Positions 8,899 through 17,572 of a stretch of 64,000 bases of DNA are shown one piece after another. Positions within the stretch are counted from its first letter, which is position 1, and each line of letters starts with the position of its first letter. Under the pieces are notes generated by a model. It ran no database searches. It was given only the letters and a program-made list of their open reading frames with translations, and was not told the origin of the DNA. A program made the translations under genes and the position numbers. The DNA is from a virus, in IMG/VR virus record IMGVR_UViG_3300026484_000095, positions 32,001-96,000 of that record. One strand, written 5' to 3'.

Positions 8899-9396
8899 AT
8901 GTCAGAACCTAGTAAAGCTACCTTAGTAATCAATCACATAAACGAAACAATCCCCATTGAAGATGTCTTAGAGAAAGAGTGCGACATAGAAGTCAAGTCT
9001 TTCCCTACTCAGATATTTTGCCCTTTTCACGACGATATTGAAGAGCCATCTGCAAGGGTGTATGGTGGTAAGAAAGGTATGTACTGCTTCGGGTGTGGTA
9101 GGACTTATCTACCTTTCGATTTCAGAAGATTTCAAAATATGGGGGTAGGTGAAGCTATTAACTATTTCAAAGAGATGTATAATGTAAATATACCTGAAAA
9201 TAGTGATGAGTTGGTAGATGGTTCATATAAATTAAACAAGCAAATAAGCCATCAAATAGGGCTTTTTAGGTCAAAGGGTGGGGAAGTATCTATAAAGGCT
9301 TTAAAGAGCTTAGAGAGGGGTTTACTAAGCTCTTATCGTATGGATAGGGTATCAGGTGGGCTTAAAAAGTTCATCAAAAACAATACAAGCTATTAA
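8899..9396 (+). CDS. Stand-alone DnaG-type CHC2 zinc-binding domain (primase N-terminal part)
   Basis: CPFHDD..PS...YCFGCG; no TOPRIM domain. Confidence 0.8.
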   Translation: MSEPSKATLVINHINETIPIEDVLEKECDIEVKSFPTQIFCPFHDDIEEPSARVYGGKKGMYCFGCGRTYLPFDFRRFQNMGVGEAINYFKEMYNVNIPENSDELVDGSYKLNKQISHQIGLFRSKGGEVSIKALKSLERGLLSSYRMDRVSGGLKKFIKNNTSY

Positions 9397-9402
9397 TTTT
9401 CT

Positions 9403-9448
9403 CTTTAAGGTAAAGTTAAGCTGTTTTTAGCTATCATTTCGGTATCTT
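9403..9448 (+). promoter_or_regulatory. Early promoter P7
   Basis: CTTTAAGG 9403, TTAAG 9416, TATCAT 9432. Confidence 0.75.
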
Positions 9449-9465
9449 AAAAAGAGAGGTTAAAA

Positions 9466-10386
9466 ATGCAAGTAGAAAAATTTTCAATCCATAAAATAGC
9501 AACCAAGAAAGATGAAGAAGCTATAAGCAATATCAGAACCAAGTTGTTCGGTATAGCAGGTGTATTAGATACATTCCTATCCGACGGGAAGCTGGTTATC
9601 CTAAAAAATGGGGATAGACTAGCTGATAAAGAGTTAGTAGGTTATCTAAAAACTAGATTTAATTTAATTGAATACAATTTCGATTGTTACACTTATTAAG
9701 GTTTAACCTTATGTCTAGTAATTATGATGACCATAAAATAGTAAAAGTGCTTAATCATTTTATTGAGCACGAAGCCAACAAATATAAGAGTATAGGTCGT
9801 ATTTTTATAGAAAATGGTAAAATACACTTAGAAAAAAGAGAGAAAGCACATTGTGGGTATATCCCTACTATGTGTAAAGTTCCTATAAGTTCTTATAAGT
9901 CTATGTATAGACGGTATATTAGAGGAATGAAAAGAGACGATAGATTAACGATAGGGAGTTTAAAATGTTAGAATGTAAAATAGAATTGACTGGTGTAACA
10001 ACAGAAGAACTTATCTATGCTTTAGATGAAGCCAAAAGACTTATAGAAGCAGGGAACATATCAGGAGCAGACTCAAGAGAAGATGAAACTGGTTCTTATT
10101 CATTTGAAGTAGATGGAGAAGAGAGTAACTCAATAGAGTGTAGCTGTAATCATACAAATTACTATGAAGATGGTGAAGTCCAAATTACTTGTAGTGATTG
10201 TCAAGCAACTATAACAGTTTTATAAAGGATAAAATTATGTATATGATAGTAGATGACAAAGGTGTTATTTATAGTGGTTCATTAGAGGAGATGCAAGAGC
10301 AGTTTGCTAAGATGACTTCAAGTAAAAGTGAAGATAGTTGGACTGGGGATTTAAGATTAATCGAGGTCTTAGAAGTATATAGATAA
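9466..10386 (+). CDS. Four small hypothetical genes (9466-9699, ~9710-9971, 9965-10225, ~10237-10386)
   Basis: Packed ORFs after P7; 9965-10225 carries CxC...CxxC. Confidence 0.55.
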
Positions 10387-10450
10387 AAGGGTTATTTTAA
10401 TCCTTTTACTGCTATATATGAGTTTATAAAAAATCAAGGTAGGTTTATAT

Positions 10451-12226
10451 ATGGAAGTAGAGACTTTAAAATCAAAGCAATTAACAGAGTTGTTGCACGA
10501 GGATAGTCTAAATAATGAAGATGTCGTAAATGGTGTAAAGAACTCAAAGGAAGCAATCGAAAAAAGTTTATTTGAGCCTATACCTTATGAGGGTAAATTT
10601 GCACAAGAAGTATTAGTTCAAATACCTGAGTTCAAATGGCTTAAAGGTGTAAAATGCAATCTAGTATATAATGATACAAAAAAGAGTGATAGAGAGTATT
10701 TACGAGGGCTATATGAGAGGTTATATCGCAAAGCTAAGGTAATAAGTGCAAAAGTTGCTATTAAAGAGGAAATGCCTCTTATCGCAATAGATTTAGAAAC
10801 AACTGGGCTTAATACATCTATAAAAATGGTAGGTGGAGAGATACAACGAAACATTGATTTAGTTGGTATCTGTTTAGCAATTAGTAACAAAGACGGTTTC
10901 TATATCCCTATTAAACATACTGAAGAAGATGGTATTCCTAATATGGATTTAAACTCAGCTTTGGATTTTCTACAAGATATTATTGACAACTTCTATCAAA
11001 TATATCACAATGCTTTCTACGATATGGAAGTACTAAGTATTCATCAAATAGAAATGAATACAAATTATGCTGATACTATGCTTATAGCAAATAATCTAGG
11101 TATGAAAGAATGGGACGATGTCTATGGGCTTGGACTCAAATTCCTTAGTGGTTACATTTTAGAAAGAAAAATGCTAGAAATAAATGAACTTATGGGTGCT
11201 AAGGGTATAATCAAGTTCAATAGGTTAGCAAGTAAGGACGCTGTTGTTTATGGATGCTCCGATGCTATGAACACATTTGGATTATTTGAGGAAATGGTAC
11301 TTAAAGCAAGAGATGACGATAATCCTTATAAATATAATTCATTGGCTATGAAGCTAGACACAAAAGTTCTTAATCATTTAAGAGGTATGTTTAGACACGG
11401 CTTCCCATTAGATTATAAAGTAGCAAGAGGTAATTTCTTGACCCTCATAAATAGAATGATTTTGTTTCAAAAGTATTTTTATAGCTATGAAATAACACAA
11501 GGTTACTCTATCGGTTCAGCCGAGCAAGTTAATGTAATGTTCGGAACTGTATTAGCTACAAAGTATTTAGAACGATATGGTATTAGATTATCTGAGAGTA
11601 TGGACTGGAATAACAAAAGAGTTTTAGCTTGTAAGAAAGCTTTATATAATGATTTTGGCTTAGAGATGAAAATAAAGAAACTTAAGGCTAGTTCAAAATT
11701 AACATTTGCTACAAGAAAAGAGGGAACAACTGGGGTTAAGGTTCTTAGTTGGATTTTGTCTAACATTGATAAATGGGATTTTTTGGATGAGAGTTTAAGA
11801 GACGATATTTACTGGATAGCCAATATCGTTGATAAGTACAGAAGTATGGTAACTGAACAAGGTCGTTTAGGTAAGATGATTCGCTATGTTTATAATGATG
11901 ACTTAAACATAAGTCGTTTTGGTATCGCCTTGAACCTTAATGGTGCCGATACTTCGAGGTTCTCTAATAAATCAGGTGTCGGGTCATTTGATAGGTTAGA
12001 AGTTAAAATAACAAAGACTGGGAAAGTAAATACAAAGTATTATGAGGGTGACGGGATTGCAGGTATAAATGCACAAGGTGTTCCTGCTCAACCTTATTAT
12101 ACAATAAAAGCTAAGAGAATGAAAGTCTTACCTGAACAGATGTTGGAATACATCACAGAGAAAGAGTACGATATTAATAATTATTATGAAGAATTATTAA
12201 TAACCAAATTAGTAAAGAAGAAATAA
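10451..12226 (+). CDS. polA: Family A DNA polymerase, N-terminal part (3'-5' exonuclease + thumb); lacks palm motifs A/B/C
   Basis: ExoI DLETTG, ExoII HNAFYD, DTML, ExoIII YGCSDA; GADTSRFS (=TxTGRLSS) and NAQGVP (=NLQNIP) near the C-terminus. Confidence 0.8.
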   Translation: MEVETLKSKQLTELLHEDSLNNEDVVNGVKNSKEAIEKSLFEPIPYEGKFAQEVLVQIPEFKWLKGVKCNLVYNDTKKSDREYLRGLYERLYRKAKVISAKVAIKEEMPLIAIDLETTGLNTSIKMVGGEIQRNIDLVGICLAISNKDGFYIPIKHTEEDGIPNMDLNSALDFLQDIIDNFYQIYHNAFYDMEVLSIHQIEMNTNYADTMLIANNLGMKEWDDVYGLGLKFLSGYILERKMLEINELMGAKGIIKFNRLASKDAVVYGCSDAMNTFGLFEEMVLKARDDDNPYKYNSLAMKLDTKVLNHLRGMFRHGFPLDYKVARGNFLTLINRMILFQKYFYSYEITQGYSIGSAEQVNVMFGTVLATKYLERYGIRLSESMDWNNKRVLACKKALYNDFGLEMKIKKLKASSKLTFATRKEGTTGVKVLSWILSNIDKWDFLDESLRDDIYWIANIVDKYRSMVTEQGRLGKMIRYVYNDDLNISRFGIALNLNGADTSRFSNKSGVGSFDRLEVKITKTGKVNTKYYEGDGIAGINAQGVPAQPYYTIKAKRMKVLPEQMLEYITEKEYDINNYYEELLITKLVKKK

Positions 12227-12243
12227 GCAAATAGGACTTAGAG

Positions 12244-12819
12244 ATGGGTAGAAGTAAAGTAGATATATTAGCATCTTTATTAGATACGGAAACGAAATTA
12301 CATTGCGATATTGTAACAGAAGTAGCCTTACATTTGGGTAAGACTTTAAGATTACCTGATGAAGAATTATATAATTTAAAGATGGTAACTCATCTACACG
12401 ATATAGGGAAAGTAAAAATCCCTATAAATATAATCAATAAAAGAGGTAAGCTGACAGTTGATGAGTATAAGTTAATTATGCTACATTCAAGTATAGGTGA
12501 TGAGTTATACACTAAATTTACAGGTCATAAAGATAACACTGGTATTATTAGACATCACCACGAAAAGTGGAATGGTGAGGGATACCCTGATAAATTAAGA
12601 GGTATAGAAATACCTTTGTTGGCTCGTATAGTAGCTATTGCAGATGTTTATGAAGCATTGAGAAGTGCAAGACCTTATAAAAACTCTTGGTCGCATAATA
12701 AAACTTCTTCGTATATTTTGACAAATGGTGGGTCAATGTTCGACCCTAATTTAACAGCAGTATATTATAAAGAGAATAAAGCAATAGATAAACTATGGGT
12801 AGGTTTAAGAAATGGATAA
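12244..12819 (+). CDS. HD-GYP cyclic-dinucleotide phosphodiesterase (stand-alone)
   Basis: HC..V, LHDIGK, HHHEKWNGEGYP, RIVAIADVYEAL, RPYK. Confidence 0.92.
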   Translation: MGRSKVDILASLLDTETKLHCDIVTEVALHLGKTLRLPDEELYNLKMVTHLHDIGKVKIPINIINKRGKLTVDEYKLIMLHSSIGDELYTKFTGHKDNTGIIRHHHEKWNGEGYPDKLRGIEIPLLARIVAIADVYEALRSARPYKNSWSHNKTSSYILTNGGSMFDPNLTAVYYKENKAIDKLWVGLRNG

Positions 12820-13282
12820 AAAGATAGAAGTGCTAGAGCAGGAAATTTTAACATTAAGAAGTTTAGTTAATAAATATAGATATGATTATCTAACTGGTTT
12901 AAAACAGCGATTAGATTTTGAGGATGATTTTAGTGAACTATTTTTTAGAAAGGAATCTTTCTCTTTGTTGGTCATTGACTTAAATAATCTTCATACAATT
13001 AATCTAAAGTTTGGTTACATTGAGGGCGATAGATTTATAAAAACTACTGCTTATCAAATATCTTCCAAAATTAAAGGGAGACTGTATAGAATAGGTGGAG
13101 ATGAATTTGCTTTATTAGTAACTGATTCAATAGATGATAATGAGCTAGACAAAATCCCTAACTGCACTTGGGCTTATAAGGAAGTGGATTATTTAAAACA
13201 TTTATCGACTAGTCATATATTCTCTGATGTTGATAAAATCTTGAAAGAGAAGAAAAGCAAACTGAAAGAACAAGTAAGATAG
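12812..13282 (+). CDS. GGDEF (diguanylate cyclase) domain protein
   Basis: DYLTGL, IDLNNL..IN..FGY..GD, YRIGGDEF; N-terminal coiled helix. Confidence 0.9.
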   Translation: MDKKIEVLEQEILTLRSLVNKYRYDYLTGLKQRLDFEDDFSELFFRKESFSLLVIDLNNLHTINLKFGYIEGDRFIKTTAYQISSKIKGRLYRIGGDEFALLVTDSIDDNELDKIPNCTWAYKEVDYLKHLSTSHIFSDVDKILKEKKSKLKEQVR

Positions 13283-13284
13283 CT

Positions 13285-13710
13285 ATGACTATACAAGATA
13301 GGAAAGAGTATTTTAAAAAGTATTATGTTGAGAATAAAGACAAGATACGAGAAAAGTCAAGAGCTAGATATGAAGCTAAAAAGCCTTATATAAGAGAGCA
13401 GACAAAGAAGTATAGAACAACTAAGGGCTATAAAAAGAGTAAAGCTCAAAGCACAGCTAAGATACAAGCAGAAAGAGAACTGTCAAGTATTTTAGCAAAA
13501 GAGAGTGGAACATACGGCAAAGGCTACACATACGAAGAGGATAAATCCATCTTGTTGTATAAAGAACAGCTAGGTTGCACTTATAAATATATAGCAGAAG
13601 AAATACTTAAAAGAAGTATTAAAGGCATTGAGTATAGATATAACTATCTTAAAAAGATGAGAGCTAAGTCAAAAAGTAATAATCCTTTTACTGAGATAGT
13701 ATATAAATAA
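13285..13710 (+). CDS. Basic protein with C-terminal Myb/SANT-like HTH
   Basis: YTYEEDKSIL...LGCTYKYIAEEILKRSIKGIEYRY. Confidence 0.6.
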   Translation: MTIQDRKEYFKKYYVENKDKIREKSRARYEAKKPYIREQTKKYRTTKGYKKSKAQSTAKIQAERELSSILAKESGTYGKGYTYEEDKSILLYKEQLGCTYKYIAEEILKRSIKGIEYRYNYLKKMRAKSKSNNPFTEIVYK

Positions 13711-13729
13711 AATTTGAAGAGGGTTTTCA

Positions 13730-15673
13730 ATGGTAATTAAATTAGACGATTTTCAAAGAAAGGTTTATGTTCAACCTGTTCTGAAAGATACAGCATTGAT
13801 AGTTGAAGCAGTTGCAGGGTCAGGTAAATCAACTACAATGGTATCAAAGGCTTACAGGTTTATAAAAATGGGACTGAAGCCACATAACATCTTATTAACT
13901 ACATTCAGTAATAAGAGTGCTAAGGATTTAAGAACTAAATTCCGAAATACATTTGGCGATAAGGTTCAAGGCACTCCTATGATTACAACTCTCCATAGTT
14001 TCGGTATAGAGATATTAAAAACATTTTTCAAGATAAAGACACCTATCATTCTTACAGAGTGGAAATCTCTAATGGTTATACGAGAGATATGTGATAATAT
14101 GGGTCTATTTGTTAATGAAGATACTGGAATGAAATGGAACAAGAAAGACCAAACAGCTTTTGTAAGACAAGTGTATGATGGACTTGATTATCTTAAAAGT
14201 AATATGATAATCAATGATATAAGAGATATATCAACTGGTAAAGTTCTTATCAATGAGTTCAAGGATAAATCTAACTGGTTCTCCTCTGAACTGTTTGCTC
14301 AAATCGTAGTGCAATATGAAAATGTTAAAAGAGAACGGGGTTTCTATGATTACAATGACCTGATATTCAGAGTATATTATGAGTTACTAAATCATAAGAA
14401 AATTCTAGCTAAGGTTAGAAAAAAGTATAAAGTGGCTATAATTGATGAAGCACAAGACTTAGACGCTTCTCAATGGGCTTTTATCTTATTGCTAAGTATG
14501 GGTCAAAGACTTATAGCAGTTGGAGATAAAATGCAAAACATATATAACTTTCGGTACTCTGTTCCTGCGAATTTTAGCACAACTTTCTTATATAAGTTCT
14601 TTGGTAAAGTCATAGAGCTATCATTGGAGAATAATTATAGAAGCACCAAGAATATCGTAGATATTGGAAACATTGTACGATACATAGGTAAAGATAAATT
14701 GGTTTCTAAATCTTTTAGACCTAAGGTGCAAGGTTCAGTTAAATTCATCACAGTTAAAAACAACCTACAAGAGGGAACAGCTATTGCTGACCAAGTTAAA
14801 AAAGCATTAGAGCAAGGTTATTCATTAGGCGATATAACTATCATCTGTCGTAGTAATATGTATATCAAAACAAATGTAGAACCTGCATTAGTTCGTAATG
14901 ATATTCCTTATATGCTACTATCTAAACAAATCGGTAAGAAGCTAACAGATAAACCTGCTAATCAAATTTATTTCAATATCTTATCATTATTGATTAATCC
15001 CAATGACATTACTTCGCTATCAGATTTAACTGTATATATAAAAGGGTGTGGAGAGAAGTTTGCAGATGAACTTGGTAAGCAGTTGCTAAGAACTGGGGAT
15101 ATTAGAAGTGTCTCCGTGTCAAGTAATAACAAAACTAAATTAGATAATGTAAAAGTTCTTTACAATGAAATCTATAAACTGAGAAATAGTATTAGCAGTA
15201 TTAAGCTAATAACTAAAATGCTTGATGTAATAGGGTATCTTATAAATGTTTATCTTAAACCCGAAATTGTATCTAACAAAGAGAGGGAAACAATCGAGCA
15301 AGTTATATTAAACTGGGTTAATTATTACAAAGGCGAGGGTATAACTGATGTATGGGAAAACATCAATCAAGTTCTATTTGAGATAGACTCATTTGATGCA
15401 GATGATAGCGAAGATAAAGTAAGAGTAGGAACTATACATTCGCAGAAGGGACTAGAGCAACCTATATCAATATGTGCAGGGTTTGTAGGGTATAAGCAAA
15501 GACCTGATGTAGATAATGATAATGTTAATATGTTGTATGTTCAACTATCAAGAGCTATGGATAAATTGGTGGTTATTAACTCAATCGATTATGTTCTAAA
15601 GAGTGGCGACACAGTAAAAGGTGCTATGTTATCACAAATGAAAATTTTATTAAGTATATTAAAGGGGGAGTAA
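13730..15673 (+). CDS. uvrD: UvrD/Rep/PcrA-family SF1 helicase
   Basis: AVAGSGKS, TFSNKSA, TLHSF, IDEAQD, VGDKMQNIYNFR, NYRS, TIHSQKGLE, LYVQLSRA. Confidence 0.92.
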   Translation: MVIKLDDFQRKVYVQPVLKDTALIVEAVAGSGKSTTMVSKAYRFIKMGLKPHNILLTTFSNKSAKDLRTKFRNTFGDKVQGTPMITTLHSFGIEILKTFFKIKTPIILTEWKSLMVIREICDNMGLFVNEDTGMKWNKKDQTAFVRQVYDGLDYLKSNMIINDIRDISTGKVLINEFKDKSNWFSSELFAQIVVQYENVKRERGFYDYNDLIFRVYYELLNHKKILAKVRKKYKVAIIDEAQDLDASQWAFILLLSMGQRLIAVGDKMQNIYNFRYSVPANFSTTFLYKFFGKVIELSLENNYRSTKNIVDIGNIVRYIGKDKLVSKSFRPKVQGSVKFITVKNNLQEGTAIADQVKKALEQGYSLGDITIICRSNMYIKTNVEPALVRNDIPYMLLSKQIGKKLTDKPANQIYFNILSLLINPNDITSLSDLTVYIKGCGEKFADELGKQLLRTGDIRSVSVSSNNKTKLDNVKVLYNEIYKLRNSISSIKLITKMLDVIGYLINVYLKPEIVSNKERETIEQVILNWVNYYKGEGITDVWENINQVLFEIDSFDADDSEDKVRVGTIHSQKGLEQPISICAGFVGYKQRPDVDNDNVNMLYVQLSRAMDKLVVINSIDYVLKSGDTVKGAMLSQMKILLSILKGE

Positions 15674-16413
15674 ATGAGACCTAAAAGAAAAAAGAGAAAG
15701 CTCATTAAACCTAATAACATTTACAATATGGACGCTAGGAAGCTGTTAAGACTTATCCCCAGCAATTCTGTAGATTTAATTGTAACAGACCCTCCTTATC
15801 CCGTTATAAGTGGTGGTAGGAATGGAAAAAACAGTAAAGACCCAAAAGGTGTATTGTTAGCTAATGATGGTAAGATATTCAAACATAATGATATTTCAAT
15901 TCACGAATGGTTACCTGAATGTTATAGAGTATTGAAAGAAGATACACATATCTATATTATGACCAATATGCTTAATTTAGTAGAGTATCTTAATGCAGTA
16001 GAGAAATACGGGTTCAAGATACATAATCTTTTAGTATGAGTTAAGAATAATGCAACTCCTAACAAGTGGTATATGAAAATGTTGAGTATACTATCTTTGC
16101 TAGAAAGGGTAAGGCTAAATATATAAATAACCCTAGCTCTCTAACAGCCCAGAACCATAAGAATAAAGATAGAGGTAGAGTGAATGAATCATATCACCCA
16201 ACAGAAAAGCCTCTAACTTTAATGAGAGAGTATGTAAGTAATTCTGCTAAGACAGGAGATTTAGTTTTAGACCCGTTTATGGGTGGTGGGGCTGTACCCA
16301 TAGTATGTCAAGAGCTTAATATAGATTATATAGCAAATGATATAGATGAAGCTTATTACAAAGTAGTTCAAGACCGTTTAGAATTGGAAAGAACTGATAA
16401 TTGGTTTCAATAG
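15674..16413 (+). pseudogene. Disrupted N4/N6 DNA methyltransferase (beta class)
   Basis: TDPPY in 15674-16039; HPTEKP and DPFMGGG in the second frame; TGA at 16037-39 where Trp is expected and one A missing at 16076-79. Confidence 0.8.
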
Positions 16414-16594
16414 ATAGTTAATAAATAGTTAATAAAGTTCTATATATTGTAAAAAGTTCTTATAGTTATAAAGAGCTTCATATTTGGCTTATATGGGTTT
16501 AAAATAGTTTATTAAGGGTAAAGTGTATCTTAGAGAGAAAAAGGCTTAAAAGGGCTTAGAATTAAATTTTAAAATTTATAGTAAAAAATCTCTT

Positions 16595-16640
16595 CTTTAA
16601 GGTATATTTAAGCTATATTTTTATATCATTTTTTATCTAA
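16595..16640 (+). promoter_or_regulatory. Early promoter P8 with degenerate upstream module (from ~16487)
   Basis: CTTTAAGG 16595, TTAAG 16608, TATCAT 16624. Confidence 0.7.
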
Positions 16641-16762
16641 AAAGTTAAAGAGCTTTTTAGGGTTATTTAAAATCATATTGTTAAGCTTTAATAGTTTATT
16701 TTTATAGCTTCCGAATCTTTATTATAATTTAGTATAAATAAGAAAAAATAAGGATATTAAAA

Positions 16763-17572
16763 ATGGAAAATGTAAAATTAACTAAGGGTTCTAAAGTAAA
16801 GTTAGCAGGTAAAGAGTATGAAGTAACTGTTGTTGGTTCAAATCAAGTTACATTAAAAAATGTAAAAGATGGTAAGACTAGAAGAGTTGCTTTTAGTAGT
16901 TCTGCCTATGCTAAGATTGAAGTCCTAGAACTTGTTGAAAGCAAAGAAACAGAAGCAAAAGAAGAGAAGACTTCTAAAAAAGCTCCTAAAAAGAGAGAGG
17001 GTAAGAAACTTCAAGAGAAAGAAGATATTAAACCTCTTAACATTGAAGAGTTTGAGATGGAATCTTGGAAAGAACTTGTAGGGGAAGTGGAAACAGTAGA
17101 AGAAGCACCTCATTTCAAGTTTGAAGCTGAAACATTCACTTCTGCTTGGATATATTCAATCCAAAGAGCAAATAAAGCTCAAAGACTAGAGTATATCTTG
17201 AAAAAGTTAGAGATGGAGGGAGAGGACAGTTTCTTTGGGTTGCTGTTAGCTATCTATAAAGTTAGACAAAATTACAAGTTTAACTTTAACAAGTTTGAGC
17301 AACGAGTTCTTCAAGATAAAGTTCATCAAGGTAAAAGAGCTAAAAAGATAAAAATCGCAGATATTTTAGAGGCAATGAAACCTGCATTACATAAATCTCA
17401 AAATAAAATCACAATGGAGATGTATGACGCTGTTATCAAAACAATACCTGATGATGGTGTTGATGGTAAGCAAAGTTGGATTTTCTATGCAATAGATGGT
17501 CTATGGACTGATGTTGGTTCTCTAAAATTATCTCAACAAGATTTAGCAAATATCAAGATACCTATGTCATAG
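16763..17572 (+). CDS. Hypothetical protein (small beta-rich N-terminal domain)
   Basis: 269-aa ORF, AAGGA RBS. Confidence 0.75.
   Translation: MENVKLTKGSKVKLAGKEYEVTVVGSNQVTLKNVKDGKTRRVAFSSSAYAKIEVLELVESKETEAKEEKTSKKAPKKREGKKLQEKEDIKPLNIEEFEMESWKELVGEVETVEEAPHFKFEAETFTSAWIYSIQRANKAQRLEYILKKLEMEGEDSFFGLLLAIYKVRQNYKFNFNKFEQRVLQDKVHQGKRAKKIKIADILEAMKPALHKSQNKITMEMYDAVIKTIPDDGVDGKQSWIFYAIDGLWTDVGSLKLSQQDLANIKIPMS

Follow-up and report, generated by a model that had tools for sequence, protein, structure and literature searches.

The window, a 64,000-nucleotide stretch of DNA from an uncultured hydrothermal-vent phage of ~110–140 kb (record, 109.8 kb; CheckV completeness, 100%), carries its genes on one strand throughout and is uniform in GC content. 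In a replication-type operon on the + strand, a gene for the N-terminal part of PolA (3'-5' exonuclease; 10451..12226; Pfam DNA_pol_A_exo1, 1.2e-11) is followed after 17 nt by a gene for a stand-alone HD-GYP phosphodiesterase of 191 aa (12244..12819; Pfam HD_5, 4.4e-30) and then by a gene for a minimal coiled-coil GGDEF protein of 156 aa, a predicted diguanylate cyclase (12812..13282; Pfam GGDEF, 4.7e-14). The GGDEF start codon lies within the end of the HD-GYP gene, giving an 8-nt overlap (ATGGATAA; 12812..12819). Two nucleotides past the GGDEF stop begins a gene for a Myb-like DNA-binding protein of 141 aa (13285..13710; Pfam Myb_DNA-bind_6, 4.1e-5), and a UvrD-type helicase gene follows (13730..15673; Pfam UvrD-helicase, 1.2e-44; UvrD_C, 3.8e-19). 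The two reading frames, their coordinates and their overlap were as originally predicted, as was the position of the pair between polA-N and uvrD, with the Myb-like gene also intervening before uvrD. At least eight further gene pairs in the window overlap by 1–11 nt; because such short overlaps are routine in this phage genome, we rejected the 8-nt overlap as a sign of functional coupling. Rfam gave no match across the whole window at gathering thresholds, and the window holds no tRNAs. Among GenBank phages, the region has no DNA-level relative, PolA matches are weak only and no close phage was found.

The HD-GYP protein scored 105.1 bits against Pfam HD_5 (cut-off, 27.2) over profile positions 5–170 of 170, placing it in PF13487, and also matched Pfam HD (1.7e-14). 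Its top PDB match by sequence was the Vibrio cholerae protein V-cGAP3 (5z7c; 1.7e-28), alongside PmGH (4mcw; 2.1e-26) and PA4781 (4r8z; 1.3e-18), and its AF2 model (pLDDT 94.6, pTM 0.91) matched PA4781, PmGH and DvhD in Foldseek with TM 0.80–0.86 and V-cGAP3 with TM 0.70. Pfam and PDB matches of both this protein and its GGDEF neighbour were far above chance. All eight PmGH-type metal ligands are present (E16, H20, H52, D53, H81, H105, H106 and D134). The first two lie in the stretch D-T-E-T-K-L-H (E16...H20; 12289..12303), where a residue-by-residue alignment to 4mcw makes E16 the counterpart of the extra Glu in the PmGH trinuclear site. H20 is invariant among 26 homologues, whereas position 16 is Glu in 5 of these 26 aligned sequences, the majority residue being Tyr; in a wider set of 120 homologues, the D.xT..H motif was found in 92, 11 of which have Glu at this position.

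The remaining motifs that the original prediction had listed are likewise all in place: HDIGK (H52, D53 and K56; residues 52–56; 12397..12411), invariant in the homologue alignment; HHEKWNGEGYP (H105, H106, E107 ... G113, Y114, P115; 12556..12588), in which H, H, E, G and Y are invariant; ADVYEAL (residues 133–139); and the stretch from D134 to R143-P-Y-K146 (12643..12681), in which D134, R143 and Y145 are invariant. The ligand set (E, H, HD, H, HH, D), the GYP motif (G113-Y-P115), RxYK (R143-P-Y-K146) and the extra Glu are those of PmGH from Persephonella marina, and the fold is that of the c-di-GMP phosphodiesterases PmGH and PA4781 (TM 0.81–0.84). Unlike these enzymes, the phage protein is a bare catalytic domain: it begins 15 residues ahead of the first ligand and has no regulatory domain at its N terminus, and where they have Asp in (W)DGxGYP it has N110, a natural variant common to a third of homologues (38 of 115). 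The closest relative is bacterial, at 44% identity, with nothing above; PHROG families gave no match, and PADLOC defence profiles gave only marginal HD-domain matches (E 0.0035–0.009). To judge by its residues, the HD-GYP protein looks catalytically competent.

The GGDEF protein scored 52.9 bits against its Pfam profile (cut-off, 23.8), which places it in PF00990, although only profile positions 3–96 of 161 were covered; a profile of its own family aligned end-to-end (positions 16–152) to solved cyclases, for example 6zxb (2.9e-18). DYLTGL (residues 25–30) and YRIGGDEF are both present as predicted, the latter forming the A-site (Y92-R-I-G-G-D-E-F99; 13085..13108), which is invariant in 20 of 20 family members, including the A-site Arg, R93 (R93-I-G95-G-D-E-F99). 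Upstream, D56-L-N-N-L-H61-T-I-N64 ... G72-D73 (12977..13030) supplies the Mg-binding Asp and the guanine-binding Asn and Asp: this region pairs with DIDKFKNINDTYGHEIGD in DgcR, D56, N64 and D73 falling on its D, N and D, which are D327, N335 and D344 in PleD numbering. D56, L60, N64, G68, G72 and D73 are invariant across the 20 family members. Near the C terminus, the family-invariant K148 (13253..13255), in an (A)K motif, falls on the Lys within 'LYEAKSS' of 6zxb and is the counterpart of the phosphate-binding Lys of the C-terminal helix (PleD K442).

The original prediction was right to read DLNNLHTINL in place of DxDxFKxIND, and H61 stands where the DxDxFK Lys (PleD K332) would be. It had taken such deviations to mean that the protein might make another product or serve as a nucleotide sponge. 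The deviations prove to be family-wide, with His at position 61 in 14 of 20 members and Lys in 6, while the Mg-binding D56 and E98, the guanine-specifying N64 and D73, R93 and the phosphate-binding K148 are all invariant in an alignment of 20 members whose mean column identity is 29%, a pattern that fits catalysis rather than mere binding. Hypr GGDEFs, which make cGAMP, have Ser where D73 stands. RxxD occurs nowhere in the protein, the I-site position reading KIKG (86–89), so the predicted lack of an I-site holds. The core is some 25 residues short: helix alpha3 and a hairpin, which would separate the GGDEF strand from the strand that follows, have been lost. H61 or this core deletion could alter activity or product. 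An mCpol/Cas10-like identity was rejected given the clear GGDEF fit and the lack of any match to PADLOC defence profiles. The GGDEF protein is not degenerate and looks catalytically competent; most likely it synthesizes c-di-GMP constitutively and free of feedback.

Structure prediction gave a confident monomer (AF2 pLDDT 94.7), for which the top Foldseek matches were coiled-coil diguanylate cyclases, with probability 1.00 to ~40 diguanylate cyclase structures. The short N-terminal coil that had been predicted is seen in the model as a helix at residues 2–21 (12815..12874; DSSP), a putative parallel coiled-coil dimerization stalk. Homodimer prediction scored 0.61, against 0.01 for the best of three controls, with 100% contact agreement between runs and partner pLDDT of at least 88. 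In calibration, 20 of 30 proteins whose solved structures are one-chain pairs attained the mark for a dimer, as did 1 of 23 whose structures are single chains, counts that are approximate because the input was our own alignment. The two copies meet in register along the N-terminal helix (contacts 8:8, 12:12, 15:15, 19:19 and 22:22). The GGDEF protein is predicted to form a parallel coiled-coil homodimer; since solved coiled-coil GGDEF dimers exist (3i5c, 6ttr and 6zxb), the prediction indicates resemblance to them and may be the predictor's recall of such structures.

Among the closest known systems are the stalk cyclases DgcB (6ttr), a GCN4-WspR fusion (3i5c), SiaD (7e6g), DgcR (6zxb) and phytochrome-DGC (5llx). 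As in these, the N-terminal helix of the phage protein runs straight into DxLTGL and the GGDEF domain, and the A-site, Mg-binding Asp, guanine-binding Asn/Asp and C-terminal Lys are shared; a parallel coiled-coil dimer is predicted for the phage protein. Unlike them, the phage helix has no upstream sensor or receiver domain, and the phage family lacks the RxxD I-site, has lost ~25 core residues, carries His for Lys in 14 of 20 members, and comprises proteins of only 147–222 aa encoded on viral contigs.

We define here, from sequence comparison, a discrete phage-borne clade of predicted minimal GGDEF cyclases, comprising 22 proteins of 147–222 aa from viral and metagenomic contigs (FastTree local support, 0.979), each with an N-terminal coiled coil and a minimized GGDEF core lacking the I-site. 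A gap in profile scores separates clade members (121–182 bits) from others (at most 105 bits). Small ORFs made up 22 of 33 viral relatives compared with 1 of 80 bacterial-genome relatives, the latter being the best 80 among the matches listed; the metagenome and genome scans used the generic pattern YRIGGDEF, and the closest GGDEF relatives, P0002 and P0003, were absent among the matches listed in them. Of the 150 best matches among 1.84 billion representatives, about half were single-domain proteins of 146–227 aa. By its sequence the GGDEF protein belongs to a lineage almost confined to phages, and the clade's members, at ~150 aa (coiled coil plus trimmed core), would be the smallest GGDEF cyclases among those compared.

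GGDEF genes are already annotated in cultured phages, including Bordetella Vojvodinavirus LK3/CN1, Pseudomonas Yuavirus, Clostridium perfringens phages, Bacillus phages G and SP-15 and E. coli vB_EcoM-613R3. These encode small proteins with a fold similar to that of the window protein, but identity reaches at most ~40% over the core (E 1e-5 or worse) and none falls in the clade. The Bordetella phage is reported to give hyper-biofilm lysogens (PMC8471281). The literature searched held no enzymology for these annotated proteins and no biochemical characterization of any phage-encoded diguanylate cyclase. If the clade's proteins are active, replication of many large phages would be accompanied by a rise of c-di-GMP in the infected cell, which would matter for motility, matrix production, the display of receptors and immunity triggered by c-di-GMP. 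Such minimal GGDEFs are also convenient for expression and assay, and could serve as constitutive c-di-GMP generators.

The original prediction had called for a check on whether the pair is conserved in related phages. At none of 36 loci carrying GGDEF relatives (L002–L037) did an HD-GYP gene lie closer than 6 kb to the GGDEF gene, and no HD-GYP gene was found anywhere in 26 GGDEF-bearing virus records, an absence that is weak evidence because most of these records are fragments (7 are at least 90% complete). The sole viral HD-GYP relative has no GGDEF in its record, an EAL domain occurred in 1 of 18 virus records, within a bacterial-type dCache-GGDEF-EAL protein, and no recurring neighbour of the GGDEF genes emerged across the loci compared. 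The cyclase occurs without a phosphodiesterase in more than 20 other phages; among the records compared, the source phage alone pairs it with an HD-GYP. The HD-GYP and GGDEF pair is not a conserved module or 'switch'. Of a characterized phage with both enzymes, none being known to the original prediction, we likewise found no example, but phage GGDEFs had been annotated and phage HD-GYPs predicted before.

As originally predicted, neither protein has a sensor domain (Pfam). PilZ, REC, EAL and c-di-GMP-I/-II riboswitches are all absent from the 109.8-kb record, and Response_reg had no match across the phage genome at E ≤0.1. The phage encodes no recognizable c-di-GMP receptor or sensor. The notion of a coupled switch was not supported: the coupling is positional only, in a genome with at least eight other overlaps, and both an input domain and a phage receptor are absent. 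A timed pulse, also proposed, is hard to square with translationally coupled co-expression.

The analysis shows the genes, their folds and residues, membership in the clade and non-conservation of the pair; enzymatic activities, products, substrates and an effect on the host we infer as follows. The HD-GYP and GGDEF genes would be co-transcribed with the phage replication genes. The ~20-residue N-terminal helix would zip two GGDEF copies into a parallel coiled coil, bringing two minimized domains together, and the sensor-less, I-site-less enzyme would make c-di-GMP from GTP constitutively and free of product inhibition, pushing the infected cell to high c-di-GMP. The HD-GYP, with its complete PmGH-type metal site, would hydrolyse a cyclic dinucleotide. 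The occurrence of the cyclase alone in other phages, and of phage HD-GYPs without a cyclase, argues against a make/break switch for one messenger. Our best explanation, to which we give roughly even credence, is that these are two separately acquired, co-expressed, sensor-less enzymes, and that the HD-GYP most likely acts on a cyclic dinucleotide other than c-di-GMP. While the cyclase raises c-di-GMP, the HD-GYP may remove an immune signal, one of the 3'3'-cGAMP type for example, as do V-cGAP HD-GYPs.

There are precedents for such a specificity. V-cGAP3 is, according to its PDB title, a 3'3'-cGAMP-specific HD-GYP, and it shows that HD-GYP specificity for a dinucleotide other than c-di-GMP is possible; it is a tandem HD / HD-GYP protein of 463 aa, and its structural match to the phage protein is the weaker one noted above. 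Iyer et al. (2021, PMC7824862) predicted that HD-GYPs of jumbo phages act as defences of the counter-nucleotide kind, and a 'cGAMP phosphodiesterase' of Microcystis phage MaAM05 shares 36% identity with the phage HD-GYP. Like ours, these are phage-encoded and stand-alone, with a proposed role against cyclic di-/oligonucleotide immunity; unlike the jumbo phages, the source phage is not jumbo, and its HD-GYP adjoins a cyclase. T4 Acb1, which cleaves CBASS signals and spares c-di-GMP (PMC9117128), is a functional parallel only, of unrelated fold and family. The source phage, the one that adds an HD-GYP, is a natural case in which to ask whether such phage enzymes are directed at immune dinucleotides or at c-di-GMP itself.

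The main rival, which we consider unlikely, is that both enzymes act on c-di-GMP at a ratio fixed by translational coupling, so that an unregulated pair overrides the host enzymes and holds c-di-GMP steady at a phage-defined level regardless of the cell's earlier state or, in a variant, channels GTP to pGpG/GMP. Synthesis and hydrolysis of c-di-GMP are the canonical activities of the two families, and although HD-GYP substrate specificity is not readable from sequence, the greater structural nearness of the phage protein to PA4781, PmGH and DvhD (the last c-di-GMP-bound), together with c-di-GMP as the family's default substrate, favours this rival, as does E16, which gives a PmGH-like ligand set. 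The 8-nt overlap would make a fixed stoichiometry possible, and both proteins lack sensor and I-site. Bacteria fuse or juxtapose GGDEF and HD-GYP (PMC10118264), as at the bacterial loci L177 and L178, where both are present; there, however, GGDEF comes first and sensors are usual, whereas the phage has the reverse order, two separate proteins and no sensors. Overlapping genes being routine in this genome and the pair unique to it both speak against the rival, and it is hard to see what would be gained during replication by burning GTP in a futile cycle. The cyclase without phosphodiesterase in more than 20 phages also counts against it, as net synthesis seems to be the selected function.

Rather doubtful, in our estimate, is the related idea that the pair, its two enzymes produced in a fixed ratio, is a self-contained set-point generator that erases the host's c-di-GMP state and imposes a level of the phage's choosing. 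Diiron HD-GYPs have a redox-sensitive iron centre, which under this reading could be the only built-in sensor at the vent; alternatively, the pair could convert GTP to pGpG as its real product.

Improbable, we think, is that one partner is no enzyme, with the GGDEF protein a nucleotide binder or sponge, or else a regulator of the HD-GYP acting by direct GYP–GGDEF contact, as Xanthomonas RpfG reportedly makes with GGDEF proteins. H61 in place of the usual Lys, the truncated core seen in the partial Pfam coverage and the translational coupling of the two genes would fit such roles, but the Mg-, guanine- and phosphate-binding residues are all invariant in a family so divergent (29% mean column identity), the family is found without any HD-GYP, and the I-site through which c-di-GMP could be bound is absent.

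To return to our preferred reading of two co-expressed enzymes, both genes are adapted to the phage. Codon usage and GC of the HD-GYP/GGDEF stretch match the phage, with codon-adaptation percentiles of 86 and 63 for the two genes and GC3 as low as in the remaining genome. An identical protein is also found on a contig of 139,849 bp. The sequencing-run search listed no RNA runs with the sequence. It is highly improbable that the pair lacks a function in the phage, whether as a one-off capture of host chromosomal DNA now in decay or as a chimera of the assembly, as the original prediction had allowed: the pair does occur in a single phage, the only DNA run listed with it is one hydrothermal-vent metagenome, possibly the source itself, and HD-GYP relatives are bacterial-type only (at most 44% identity), but both ORFs are intact with all catalytic residues kept, codons and GC are phage-like, the GGDEF protein falls in a phage rather than a host clade, the genes run on one strand at uniform GC in a record of 100% CheckV completeness, and an independent Logan contig of 31,625 bases spans window positions 9000–17000 with one mismatch.

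The HD-GYP protein (191-aa ORF, window 12244..12819, + strand) and the GGDEF protein (156-aa ORF, 12812..13282, +) lie in a window where the plus strand carries all substantial ORFs and GC is uniform at 30-35%; the window spans bases 32001-96000 of a 109,819-base IMG/VR record, 100% complete according to CheckV. The GGDEF ATG falls within the final codons of the HD-GYP gene (ATGGATAA; overlap 8 nt). Separated from the HD-GYP start by 17 nt, the upstream neighbour is a 591-aa PolA fragment carrying a 3'-5' exonuclease domain, and a 141-aa Myb-like protein (window 13285-13710; Pfam Myb_DNA-bind_6, 4.1e-5), with no match in PHROG, NCBIfam or PADLOC, begins 2 nt past the GGDEF stop, followed by a UvrD helicase and then a DNA methyltransferase in two ORFs. 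These neighbours and short spacings place the pair in a tightly packed replication-type operon, in agreement with the original prediction, which put the pair between polA-N and uvrD in the replication module. The 8-nt overlap is itself not special, because overlaps of 1-11 nt are shared by at least 8 other pairs of adjacent genes in the window.

The Pfam GGDEF match is significant and confined to the first 60% of the profile; we rejected a truncated domain, as partial profile coverage is a family trait. In a scan of IMG/VR, 18 of the 36 loci with GGDEF relatives encode 147-222-aa proteins of one common plan: an N-terminal, heptad-like helix leading into Y(R/K)YDxLTGL, a middle section of DxNxL(H/K)xxN...GYxxGD and then YRIGGDEF, and a C-terminus of short linker, single strand and basic helix. 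Residues D25, T28, D56, L60, N64, G68, G72, D73, Y92-F99 and K148 are invariant across a 20-member alignment with a mean column identity of 29%. The family profile aligns to solved cyclases from the stalk helix through the C-terminal '..AK' motif (DgcR 6zxb, 2.9e-18), which makes D56 the counterpart of the Mg-binding Asp, N64 and D73 those of the guanine-binding residues, R93-GGDEF that of the A-site and K148 that of the phosphate-binding Lys. Judged by these specificity residues, the cyclase product is probably c-di-GMP. In contrast to canonical cyclases, the small GGDEFs have His in place of the Lys of DxDxFK (H in 14 of 20 members, K in 6), omit about 25 core residues (helix alpha3 and a hairpin) and have no RxxD I-site.

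The AF2 model of the GGDEF protein (pLDDT 94.7) comprises a helix at 2-21 and then a compact GGDEF core, and its best structural matches are coiled-coil-stalk cyclases: the phytochrome-DGC 5llx, the GCN4-WspR fusion 3i5c, SiaD, DgcR and DgcB. Homodimer prediction gave a score of 0.61 (best of 3 controls, 0.01), with contacts agreeing 100% between runs, partner pLDDT of at least 88 and an interface forming an in-register parallel coiled coil (8:8, 12:12, 15:15, 19:19, 22:22). Of proteins solved as homodimers, 20 of 30 reach the score mark, as does 1 of 23 solved as single chains; these counts hold only approximately, since the alignment was one made for this analysis. The prediction supports, but does not establish, homodimerisation; since like complexes have already been solved, it shows likeness and may stem from memorised examples.

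A FastTree phylogeny covering 185 GGDEF domains (viral, bacterial-genome and metagenome loci) groups 21 of the small proteins with one further small metagenomic protein in a clade (local support 0.979) that contains the window protein, whose nearest neighbour is a viral locus, L002. Family-profile scores separate members (121-182 bits) from all others (at most 105 bits), and several clade members were not used in building the profile. Among viral relatives 22 of 33 are small complete ORFs, against 7 of 80 from metagenomes and 1 of 80 from bacterial genomes, the latter two sets being the best 80 among the matches listed; single-domain 146-227-aa proteins make up about half of the best 150 matches among 1.84 billion representatives. 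Annotated GGDEF genes occur in Bordetella, Pseudomonas, Clostridium, Bacillus and E. coli phages, those of GenBank phages being distant ones only, and the literature searched yielded no enzymology of a phage-encoded cyclase. The analysis newly delineates a discrete clade of phage-borne GGDEF proteins that are minimised and I-site-less.

In other phages the small GGDEF gene again sits within replication or nucleotide modules, beside DNA ligase, SNF2 helicase, AAA ATPase, NAMPT and DEDDh exonuclease genes. The gene at L013:6528-7289, immediately after a small GGDEF gene, encodes a 3'-5' exonuclease of the DEDDh (DNA pol III epsilon-like) type (6.7e-25), a single case; oligoribonuclease-type DEDDh enzymes degrade pGpG. 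On one viral contig (L004:1704-2153) the small GGDEF gene is divided between two ORFs, one of them 84 aa long, reflecting a frameshift or a decaying copy. Four viral contigs (L034, L035, L036 and L037; 3 of 4 with GC of 51-64%) carry giant ORFs of ~2000-3250 aa with an embedded YRIGGDEF-bearing GGDEF domain; these are candidates for multidomain proteins that are injected or associated with the virion.

The HD-GYP protein is a bare catalytic domain that matches the whole Pfam HD_5 profile (4.4e-30) and no PHROG family. By sequence, the solved structures nearest to it are V. cholerae V-cGAP3 (1.7e-28), Persephonella PmGH (2.1e-26) and PA4781 (1.3e-18). Alignments to PmGH and to 26 stand-alone homologues identify metal ligands E16, H20, H52, D53, H81, H105, H106 and D134, GYP at residues 113-115 and R-P-Y-K at 143-146; apart from E16, each is invariant or varies conservatively, with R in place of K146 in most homologues. 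E16 is a minority, PmGH-like state, found in 11 of the 92 homologues with a locatable motif (120 in the set), the majority having Tyr; N110 replaces the usual Asp ahead of GxGYP, a common variant (38/115 homologues). The protein is predicted, with good confidence, to be a catalytically active, metal-dependent phosphodiesterase of cyclic dinucleotides. In a set of 5.8 billion clustered proteins its relatives are bacterial-type, either stand-alone or REC-HD-GYP, and the nearest is only 44% identical; a 37%-identical copy occurs on one IMG/VR contig.

The original prediction joined the two enzymes in a coupled switch whose conservation in related phages could be checked. Searching with the HD-GYP protein (tblastn) found no HD-GYP within 6 kb of the GGDEF gene at any of the 36 GGDEF-relative loci, HD_5 matched nothing over the full length of 26 virus records that bear a GGDEF gene, 7 of which are at least 90% complete, and the record of the viral HD-GYP relative holds no GGDEF. 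All-against-all clustering of neighbours revealed no recurrent partner gene. We found no PilZ, c-di-GMP riboswitch, REC or EAL in the phage, and Pfam Response_reg detected no receiver domain anywhere in its genome at E <= 0.1. The supposed switch is not conserved and has neither input nor known output, and there is no evidence for the pair as a functional unit. One phage placing the clade's GGDEF beside an HD-GYP is also new. Elsewhere in the genome, before the window, a 466-aa protein (L120:11106-12503) contains a histidine-kinase-type HATPase_c domain (2.7e-12). An EAL domain occurs in one virus record (the 224-kb G012, home as well to the small GGDEF of L013), within a bacterial-type, 725-aa dCache-GGDEF-EAL sensor enzyme (L123:73-2247) adjoining an SPFH/Band 7 protein in this viral-classed record.

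Each gene is carried alone in other phages, suggesting that each has its own selected role. A constitutive parallel GGDEF dimer would bring together two GTP-loaded half-sites and, having neither sensor nor I-site, should have an output limited only by expression and GTP. Because a c-di-GMP-specific phosphodiesterase would cancel this output, the most economical reading is that the enzymes act on different substrates, the cyclase raising c-di-GMP and the HD-GYP protein removing some other dinucleotide, a CBASS signal for instance. Three precedents lend this plausibility: V-cGAP HD-GYPs are specific for cGAMP, T4 Acb1 degrades CBASS signals and spares c-di-GMP (PMC9117128), and Iyer et al. predicted phage HD-GYPs, in jumbo phages, to be counter-nucleotide enzymes (PMC7824862). 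The main rival is that both enzymes act on c-di-GMP and hold it at a phage-set steady level; in its favour, the HD-GYP model (pLDDT 94.6, pTM 0.91) is structurally closer to c-di-GMP enzymes than to V-cGAP3 (TM 0.80-0.86 to PA4781, PmGH and c-di-GMP-bound DvhD; 0.70 to V-cGAP3). Foreign or decaying genes were rejected because the two genes show codon adaptation to the phage (86th and 63rd percentiles), their GC3 falls near the bottom of the range seen in the phage, and a single Logan contig of 31,625 bases runs unbroken across window 9000-17000 with 1 mismatch. That contig comes from a hydrothermal-vent metagenome run, the only listed holder and possibly the source itself.

Among the neighbours, the N6/N4 DNA methyltransferase is split into ORFs at 15674-16039 and 16066-16413, 26 nt apart, which match Pfam N6_N4_Mtase at profile positions 1-78 and 150-220, the middle part of the domain being absent or interrupted; L121:3993-4184 holds another methyltransferase fragment. 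Just upstream of the window (L121:9526-11376; genome 29,526-31,376), a further UvrD-type helicase is encoded, which shares 38% identity with the window UvrD over 622 residues. No terminal repeat was found in the 109,819-base record, and identical GGDEF and HD-GYP proteins are listed from a longer, 139,849-base contig; the phage's true genome may be larger than the IMG/VR record.
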